Assembly (NCBI GenBank): GCA_964016885.1
Contig: OZ024759.1
Span: 11,346,001 to 11,410,000, forward strand
Source: Eledone cirrhosa
Lineage: Eukaryota
DNA: 64,000 nt
Direction of reading: 5' to 3'
Position 1 is the first letter of the stretch; the number at the start of each line of letters is the position of its first letter. The position numbers and the translations under genes were made by a program. The notes beneath the pieces were generated by a model. The model searched no databases, had not been told where the DNA came from, and saw only the letters and a list, made by a program, of their open reading frames with translations. This document shows, one piece after another, positions 12,625 through 13,492 of this stretch.

Positions 12625-13392
12625 TTATTGATACAGACAGATATAACACTTATATAACACTTATATCTAATGTTATTATTATTACAGAGGGATACAACAC
12701 TTATACAACATTTATATCTAACGTTGTTATTATTACAGACAGGTACAACACTTATACAACACTTACATAAAACTTATATCTAATGTTATTATTATTACAG
12801 AGAGATATAACACTTATAACACTTATATCTAATGCTATTATTATTACAGACAGATATAACACTTATACAACACTTATATCTAATGCTATTATTATTACAG
12901 ACAGATATAACACTTATACAACACTTACATCTAATAGTATTATTATTACAGACAGATATAACATTTATATCTAATGTTATTATTATTACAGAGAATATAA
13001 CACTTATATAACACTTATGTTTAATGCTGTTGTGTAACACTTATTTAACACTTAAGTTGTTCTTATTACAGAGATATATAACACTTAAGTTCTTATTACT
13101 GACAGATATAACACTTATATAACACTTCTGGTGATGTTATTGTTATTACAGAGAGATGTAACACTTATACAACACTTATGTCACACTTACATTATCATTA
13201 GAGATATATAACACTTATGTAATACTTATATCTTATTACAGAGTTATGTAACACTTAACTTCTTATTACAGAGAGATATAACACTTATGTCACACTTATA
13301 TAACACTTATATTGTTGTTACTACTGACAGATATAACACTTTTATAACCCTTATGTAACACTTATATAACACTTACATTATTGTTATTACAG
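12625..13392 (+). repeat. Degenerate tandem array (~15 copies) of the unc-13 splice acceptor plus exon start
   Basis: Recurrent TTATTACAG-A(G/C)AGATATAACACTTAT; last copy is the true acceptor. Confidence 0.9.
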
Positions 13393-13492
13393 AGAGATAT
13401 AACACTTATGTAACTCTGAAACTTCAAAATGTGAAATCAACAACAATCCAAGTGAAAGGAAACAATCCAAGTTGGGAGCAAGATTTCATGTT
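13393..13492 (+). CDS. unc-13: unc-13/Munc13 internal exon, C2A domain: (E)[32 protein letters not shown](F)
   Basis: Acceptor ttgttattacag|AG, donor TT|gtaagt; 100 nt, phase 1 to 2. Translation matches Munc13-1 [34 protein letters not shown] (recalled sequence). Confidence 0.95.

Follow-up and report, generated by a model that had tools for sequence, protein, structure and literature searches.

The 64-kb window analysed here (the whole stretch of 64,000 nt) contains an exon of unc-13 whose 3' splice junction is repeated many times at the end of the intron ahead of it. The question that this locus raises is what these copies are, and how one acceptor is chosen among them. The best explanation is a tandem amplification of the junction, likely a neutral minisatellite of the type known as a mirage, with upstream copies that are predicted to be skipped; we give this reading a probability of about 0.78.

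The gene is represented by two coding exons, which were found by tblastn with 14 named mollusc unc-13 proteins and are separated by an intron of 36,901 nt with compatible exon phases:

13393 to 13492, + strand: unc-13 (Munc13) C2A-domain exon, 100 nt, phase 1 in and phase 2 out
13493 to 13498, + strand: donor GTAAGT, 100 nt from the real acceptor
50394 to 50511, + strand: next unc-13 C2A exon, 118 nt, tblastn E values down to ~1e-20

In the first exon 33 codons match the C2A domain of Munc13-1 (PDB 2cjt) with an E value of 1.6e-13, and the Pfam C2 match of the peptide (E 4.5e-4) lies just under the curated cut-off. Judged by homology, the unc-13/Munc13 C2A gene call is solid. The spliced protein P0004, from another species, is identical to the two exons at 33/33 and 37/39 residues and has no insert at the junction, which supports the exon start. 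A coding extension upstream of the exon was rejected, as an in-frame stop occurs as close as 13356 and stops are present in all frames. A short upstream unc-13 exon was looked for in the 64-kb window and not found, and the intron carrying the repeated junction is therefore longer than 13 kb.

The best named homologues of the exon are from molluscs, with 28–31 of 33 residues identical in molluscs among the named matches listed. No named cephalopod protein was among the matches listed by the protein searches; the microsatellite load and the SINE-like repeats resemble those of an octopod genome. This conservation argues that the exon predates the array of copies, and that copying would have run from the exon into the array. 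Conversion in the opposite direction was considered for the tyrosine at codon 3, where most molluscs have Phe, and was rejected since Tyr is also present in P0004, Mactra and Narcine. No such repeat is found in the translated intron ends of the genomic ORFs P0005 and P0027, which come from invertebrates that are not close relatives. The acceptor of the second exon is ordinary and pyrimidine-rich, and no duplication of the junction is seen there.

Several bivalve unc-13 proteins (P0085, P0087, P0089–P0092 and P0110) contain inserts at exactly this exon junction. A conserved Ser/Gly-rich insert of 23–25 aa is present in Mercenaria, Dreissena and Mya, and one of 4 aa in Mizuhopecten; among 26 named homologue records, 7 from the three bivalve genera have the 23–25 aa insert and a single scallop record the 4 aa insert. 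The inserts do not resemble the repeat described here and probably represent a lineage-specific cassette exon. The loop therefore tolerates inserts.

The array occupies ~12615–13412 on the + strand. A search of the 64-kb window with the 26-nt junction (13384–13409), allowing at most 3 mismatches, gives 12 matches, namely the real site and 11 upstream, all on the + strand and within 12628–13409; dinucleotide shuffles of the window (n = 100) give a mean of 0.00 matches and a maximum of 0. A gapped scan for junction copies returns 23 local matches, which reduce to 16 upstream units once 6 internal 11-bp sub-repeats and the real site are subtracted. The position of one unit, 13201, was set by eye, 2 nt from the 13203 of the scan. 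The array can be divided as follows:

12615 to 12991, + strand: distal block, 8 junction-like units with spacings of 40+11n bp (40, 49, 51, 62)
12636, 12687, 12738, 12800, 12849, 12900, 12951 and 12991, + strand: junction-equivalent positions of the first eight (distal) units
12992 to 13326, + strand: proximal block, more diverged, units of 30–55 bp
13029, 13071, 13101, 13151, 13201, 13241, 13271 and 13326, + strand: junction-equivalent positions of the last eight (proximal) units, with no AG at 13029, CTG at 13101, TAG at 13201, an exact copy at 13271 and CTG at 13326
13327 to 13392, + strand: last unit, four 11-bp-like sub-repeats followed by the acceptor AG at 13391–13392

The sequence-only reading had counted about 15 tandem copies of the acceptor, two of them (at 12792 and 13263) almost exact, with only the last running on into the coding exon. 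The 16 units agree with that count, and both copies prove to match all 26 nt of the real junction (26/26). The copy with its junction equivalent at 13271 matches the real site across 9 intron and 19 exon nt, and 19 nt is also the longest exact exon run in any copy, so that at most 19 of the 100 exon nt have been copied. Coding homology continues solely from 13393, past the last unit, as had been proposed. From this homology we infer that the AG at 13391–13392 is the functional acceptor.

Each unit consists of ~20 nt of intron end and 16–17 nt of exon start, to which 0–3 extra 11-bp sub-repeats are added; this keeps the earlier description of an acceptor plus the first ~17 exon nt and refines it by the sub-repeats. 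The first 17–19 nt of the exon form the exonic part of the repeat, and the 11-bp sub-repeat derives from exon nt +6 to +16. The variable number of sub-repeats accounts for the distal spacings of 40, 51 and 62 bp. The distal block is homogeneous, with a TRF period of 51 and a 59-nt exact repeat at offset 51, and its first unit (AG at 12636), which borders on unique intron sequence, likely represents the end of the ancestral intron. Exon nt +6 to +27 themselves form an imperfect 11-bp tandem pair (8/11), and four 11-mers of the array join the front of one half of this pair to the back of the other, a pattern expected from misaligned copying. On concerted evolution inside the cluster with its boundaries excluded, a further feature of mirages, the observations are this homogeneous distal block and a mismatch of units that shows no trend with distance (rho −0.11, p 0.71). 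No copies of the unit were found elsewhere in the 64-kb window, and an origin of the unit from a dispersed repeat was rejected on the lack of any match outside the array in the window. A hairpin at the junction was also rejected as the seed of the duplication, since at −1.8 kcal/mol as DNA it is too weak.

These differences between units bear on whether the array exists at all. Mis-joined reads could have written a single junction many times, and both the very repeat-rich window and the mis-assembly of one amphioxus mirage in a draft (PMC3087553) lend something to this idea. An artefactual copying process would not, however, produce the ordered differences seen here (TRF matches of 70%, two distinct blocks, and shared variants such as a C at +2 in 7/14 units), and an assembly artefact is the least probable of the explanations considered.

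The last unit has consequences for the real acceptor. All 66 nt preceding the real AG are repeat sequence, and the working branch point of this acceptor is therefore very likely repeat-derived, which the sequence-only reading had not noted. Candidate branch points occur in this unit, including CTTAC at −18, and the stretch before the AG is free of other AGs for 62 nt. Deletion of the array would also take these ~66 nt, where the branch point must lie. The 62-nt AG-free zone was considered as a selected feature and rejected, because two copies have comparable zones of 58 and 64 nt. Similarly, no meaning is attached to the loss of the AG in the nearest copy, as 3/16 units have lost theirs and a CAG follows 4 nt later.

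All four anatomical features of the mirage class that were compared are found in the array, and on its anatomy it is a mirage-type minisatellite. The repeat unit spans the intron–exon boundary; the unit of 30–66 bp (16 junction-like units ahead of the C2A exon) is inside the reported 10–160 bp; the signal is kept in many but not all units, with CAG or TAG (YAG) at the acceptor-equivalent position in 13/16; and the terminal unit alone is continuous with the real exon. Among the remaining units, 13101 and 13326 have CTG at the acceptor position with a CAG 4 nt further on, and 13029 is degenerate and lacks an AG.

Mirages were described in amphioxus as tandem copies of intron/exon boundaries that are reported to be harmless to splicing, at Adh3, globin (BflGb6/BflGb9), troponin C (TnC) and PGBD5 (PMC3087553, PMC3902484), the last two being added by PMC3902484. 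The AG or GT is kept in many, not all, of their units, array lengths vary, and RT-PCR suggested normal splicing (PMC3087553). The mirage of BflGb6 repeats the 3' end of an intron with the 5' part of an exon (PMC3087553), the same unit as here, and the size range, the partial retention of AG and the terminal copy that alone reaches the exon are likewise shared. The amphioxus cases differ in being from a cephalochordate and in having 2–7 units in the globin and PGBD5 examples versus 16 here; the compound unit with a nested 11-bp sub-repeat is a feature of the unc-13 array. A literature search with partial coverage (most subscription papers missing) listed no mirage from a mollusc, nor any work whose title or abstract concerned this locus; for acceptor-type arrays, again with partial coverage, nothing useful was found.

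A second comparison is with human F7, where a 37-bp VNTR in intron 7 spans the exon–intron boundary and presents 5–9 identical competing sites (PMC1557585). By mutagenesis these pseudo-sites are functional, yet they stay unused and the exon-adjacent site alone is used; the same paper cites older duplication experiments with conflicting outcomes (PMC1557585). In both loci a minisatellite over an exon–intron boundary multiplies the candidate splice sites, whereas the repeated signal is a donor in F7 and an acceptor in unc-13, where the copies are putative sites read from sequence. The Rogers model of intron gain by duplication of proto-splice sites (summarised in PMC3087553) similarly involves local tandem duplication including a splice signal, but at unc-13 no new intron or exon is evident and the acceptor has been copied without a strong donor. 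The anatomy of tandem exon duplication or mutually exclusive exons is also absent, as the copies contain neither the whole exon nor a GTAAG-type donor.

Whether the copies could compete with the real acceptor was judged by a crude rule of our own, which calls a site acceptor-like if it has a YAG, is pyrimidine-rich and has a branch-like motif. Thirteen sites in the array pass, a density of 16.8 versus 1.6 per kb in the background (~10 times), and the copies can on this basis be regarded as putative acceptor look-alikes. At −18, seven distal units have the branch-like motif CTAAT or CTAAC in place of the CTTAC of the real site. Both the ~10-fold density and these seven distal motifs, better than that of the real site, speak against simple skipping. 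The same rule accepts 27 sites in 1–12620 and 66 in the downstream intron, and with 93 look-alikes in the flanking intron sequence, ignoring them must be routine here. The array folds no better than its shuffles (z −0.75, 20 shuffles). Predicted accessibility is at its lowest, 0.001, in the real site and in 13029, which likewise counts against simple skipping. Concealment of the copies by RNA structure was rejected on the z value and because the copies are predicted to be at least as accessible as the real site.

What sets the real site apart is its distance to the donor (100 nt versus 162–856 nt for the copies) and the GAA-rich exon body (4.8 GAA per 100 nt versus 0.13 in the array). Exon definition is established for exons in long introns. 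It is mentioned in the F7 study (PMC1557585). For unc-13 the choice of the real site is most likely made in this way, with the donor at 100 nt defining the exon. Since the last copy alone lies next to a donor, the prediction is that the spliceosome passes over those upstream.

Skipping need not be complete. An array that is unselected but leaky would let the nearer copies (13201, 13241, 13271 and 13330) take a measurable share of splicing, NMD would destroy the resulting transcripts, and copy number would tune the C2A-containing UNC-13 isoform between alleles. These four look-alikes lie 162–291 nt from the donor, that is within 300 nt, the copy at 13271 has the full 9 + 19 nt identity to the real site, and use of any of the 34/34 upstream AGs (12636 to 13330) gives a stop before the exon at 13393, as do the AGs 2 and 4 nt inside the exon. 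Against this are the regular splicing of amphioxus mirages by RT-PCR (PMC3087553), for which the accessible text mentions no tests with NMD blocked, and the F7 pseudo-donors that stay unused (PMC1557585). Leakage of this kind is unlikely, with a small but appreciable chance of being correct.

The same premature stops could be read as the purpose of the array, kept by selection as a poison-acceptor switch for unc-13 in neurons. This recalls human UNC13A, which is lost through a cryptic exon and NMD, in another intron (PMC8891020). That cryptic exon, in intron 20, is repressed by TDP-43, is associated with a UG-rich region and lies with a CATC repeat (PMC8891020). The two cases share the gene family, a silent splice option leading to NMD and a nearby repeat polymorphism; they differ in that the UNC13A exon is not a copied real junction and that no UG runs occur here, and the likeness is an analogy only. 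In the unc-13 array itself, the three frames contain 7, 11 and 24 stops in ~257 codons, so stops from every upstream AG are to be expected. There is no (TG)3+ run in 12601–13600, and 22 arrays of this kind, the present one included, occur in the window. Within the array, 2/28 AG positions are mismatched as against 28/322 positions elsewhere (Fisher p = 1.0), a comparison of 14/16 units (12991 excluded for an indel and 13029 for decay) that is weak because the units share history and are not independent. It shows neither protection nor purging of the AGs, which are no better conserved than their neighbours. The NMD-coupled acceptors that the sequence-only reading had offered thus find no backing as a selected switch, and we hold such a switch to be very improbable.

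That reading had also proposed recursive acceptors. A recursive splice site is an acceptor with a strong donor immediately after it. Under this proposal, or as a microexon, one copy would serve as an intermediate acceptor and regenerate a donor. The sole YAG/GT in the array, at 12742, has a donor fitting the 9-nt consensus at 6/9 positions, a raw tie with the real donor, and there are four stop-free, frame-keeping AG..GT cassettes (6, 6, 36 and 87 nt) at a junction that tolerates inserts, as in bivalves. The tie is not kept over the intron positions, however, where 12742 fits 3/6 and the real donor 6/6; the donors of the cassettes score 3–5 of 9, no GTAAG-type donor occurs in the array, and the copied junction reads AG/AG or AG/AC rather than AG/GT. 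Recursive acceptors are therefore not upheld, and a recursive or microexon role has hardly any likelihood.

The genomic context in turn argues for neutrality. Tandem repeats make up 56% of the 64-kb window, and its 22 complex minisatellites cover 45%. Some minisatellites are built from fragments of dispersed repeats, as in a 203-bp tandem array at 37991–38966 made from a piece of a dispersed repeat with 17 matches elsewhere, and the genome thus amplifies arbitrary local sequence. By a crude estimate, in which the array was ended at 13233, one or more of 4 splice sites would lie in an end unit with a probability of roughly 0.12–0.28. The special significance that had been attached to the array is not sustained, as mirages had already been described and 56% of the window is tandem repeat; the neutral slippage product, named beforehand as the outcome that would overturn it, is the reading with the best support.

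For the neutral mirage minisatellite the following origin may be envisaged. A segment of ~40 bp across the junction would have been duplicated, either through slippage or through unequal exchange and perhaps from a seed in the 8/11 tandem pair inside the exon, and the array would then have expanded and turned over. In this geometry the last copy would keep the exon body and donor, and the first copy would keep the unique intron, which would place the working branch point in repeat sequence. Only the last copy would be coding because selection would remove any expansion of the array into the exon. The exon lies between introns of >13 kb and 36.9 kb, where U1 bound at the donor, together with GAA/CAA-rich exon sequence, would bring U2AF and U2 to the nearest AG; in the rare case that splicing used a different AG, the transcript would acquire a premature stop and would likely undergo NMD.

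If the array is neutral, a mollusc joins amphioxus as a carrier of mirage repeats. The array also indicates that the branch-point region of a conserved exon can be rebuilt from exon-derived repeats. The locus would provide a natural test of acceptor choice among 14 near-identical acceptors in a long intron, as an acceptor-side counterpart of the F7 donor VNTR. Only proof that UNC-13 levels depend on copy number would make the array much more important. A broader proposal is that mirage arrays are general in minisatellite-rich mollusc genomes and that this one is a length-variable dial of unc-13, for which the chance is slim. If it were true, each extra acceptor copy would send some unc-13 pre-mRNA to NMD, and array length would determine how much of the long, C2A-bearing UNC-13 isoform is made and thereby synaptic release properties, which would vary between individuals or, given somatic instability of the array, even from neuron to neuron.

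Several other elements are present around the two exons. A minisatellite of 32 bp at 50664–51586 begins ~150 nt after the donor of the second exon and contains 29 GTAAG donor-like motifs; it is not derived from the donor junction of that exon. The 36.9-kb intron contains two near-perfect palindromes, each ~100 nt in from one of its ends, one at 13590–13937 with 172-bp arms (100%) and one at ~49974–50294 with ~160-bp arms (98%). Each has a diverged second copy (21340–21670, 77%; 17641–17954, 85%), and the palindromes are therefore dispersed foldback elements. As hairpins in the pre-mRNA they could be substrates for RNA editing. Ahead of the unc-13 array, an element at 12198–12424 has short terminal inverted repeats, carries TTAA at either end and is inserted in a 108-bp array; we take it to resemble a piggyBac-type MITE, and a related copy is found at 39329–39756.

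Finally, a full-length U6 snRNA copy (47181–47287, + strand, 97.2 bits) lies inside the unc-13 intron. It has an altered ACAGAGA box, no T-run terminator and a GAT-repeat tail, and is likely a retrocopy or pseudogene. An open frame of 302 codons at 40234–41139 on the − strand has a weak zf-RVT match (E 6e-4, below cut-off) and is likely a LINE fragment. Two tRNA-like sequences, at 51945–52018 and at 45388–45445, the latter within a dispersed repeat family of ~300 bp, are probably the heads of tRNA-derived SINEs.
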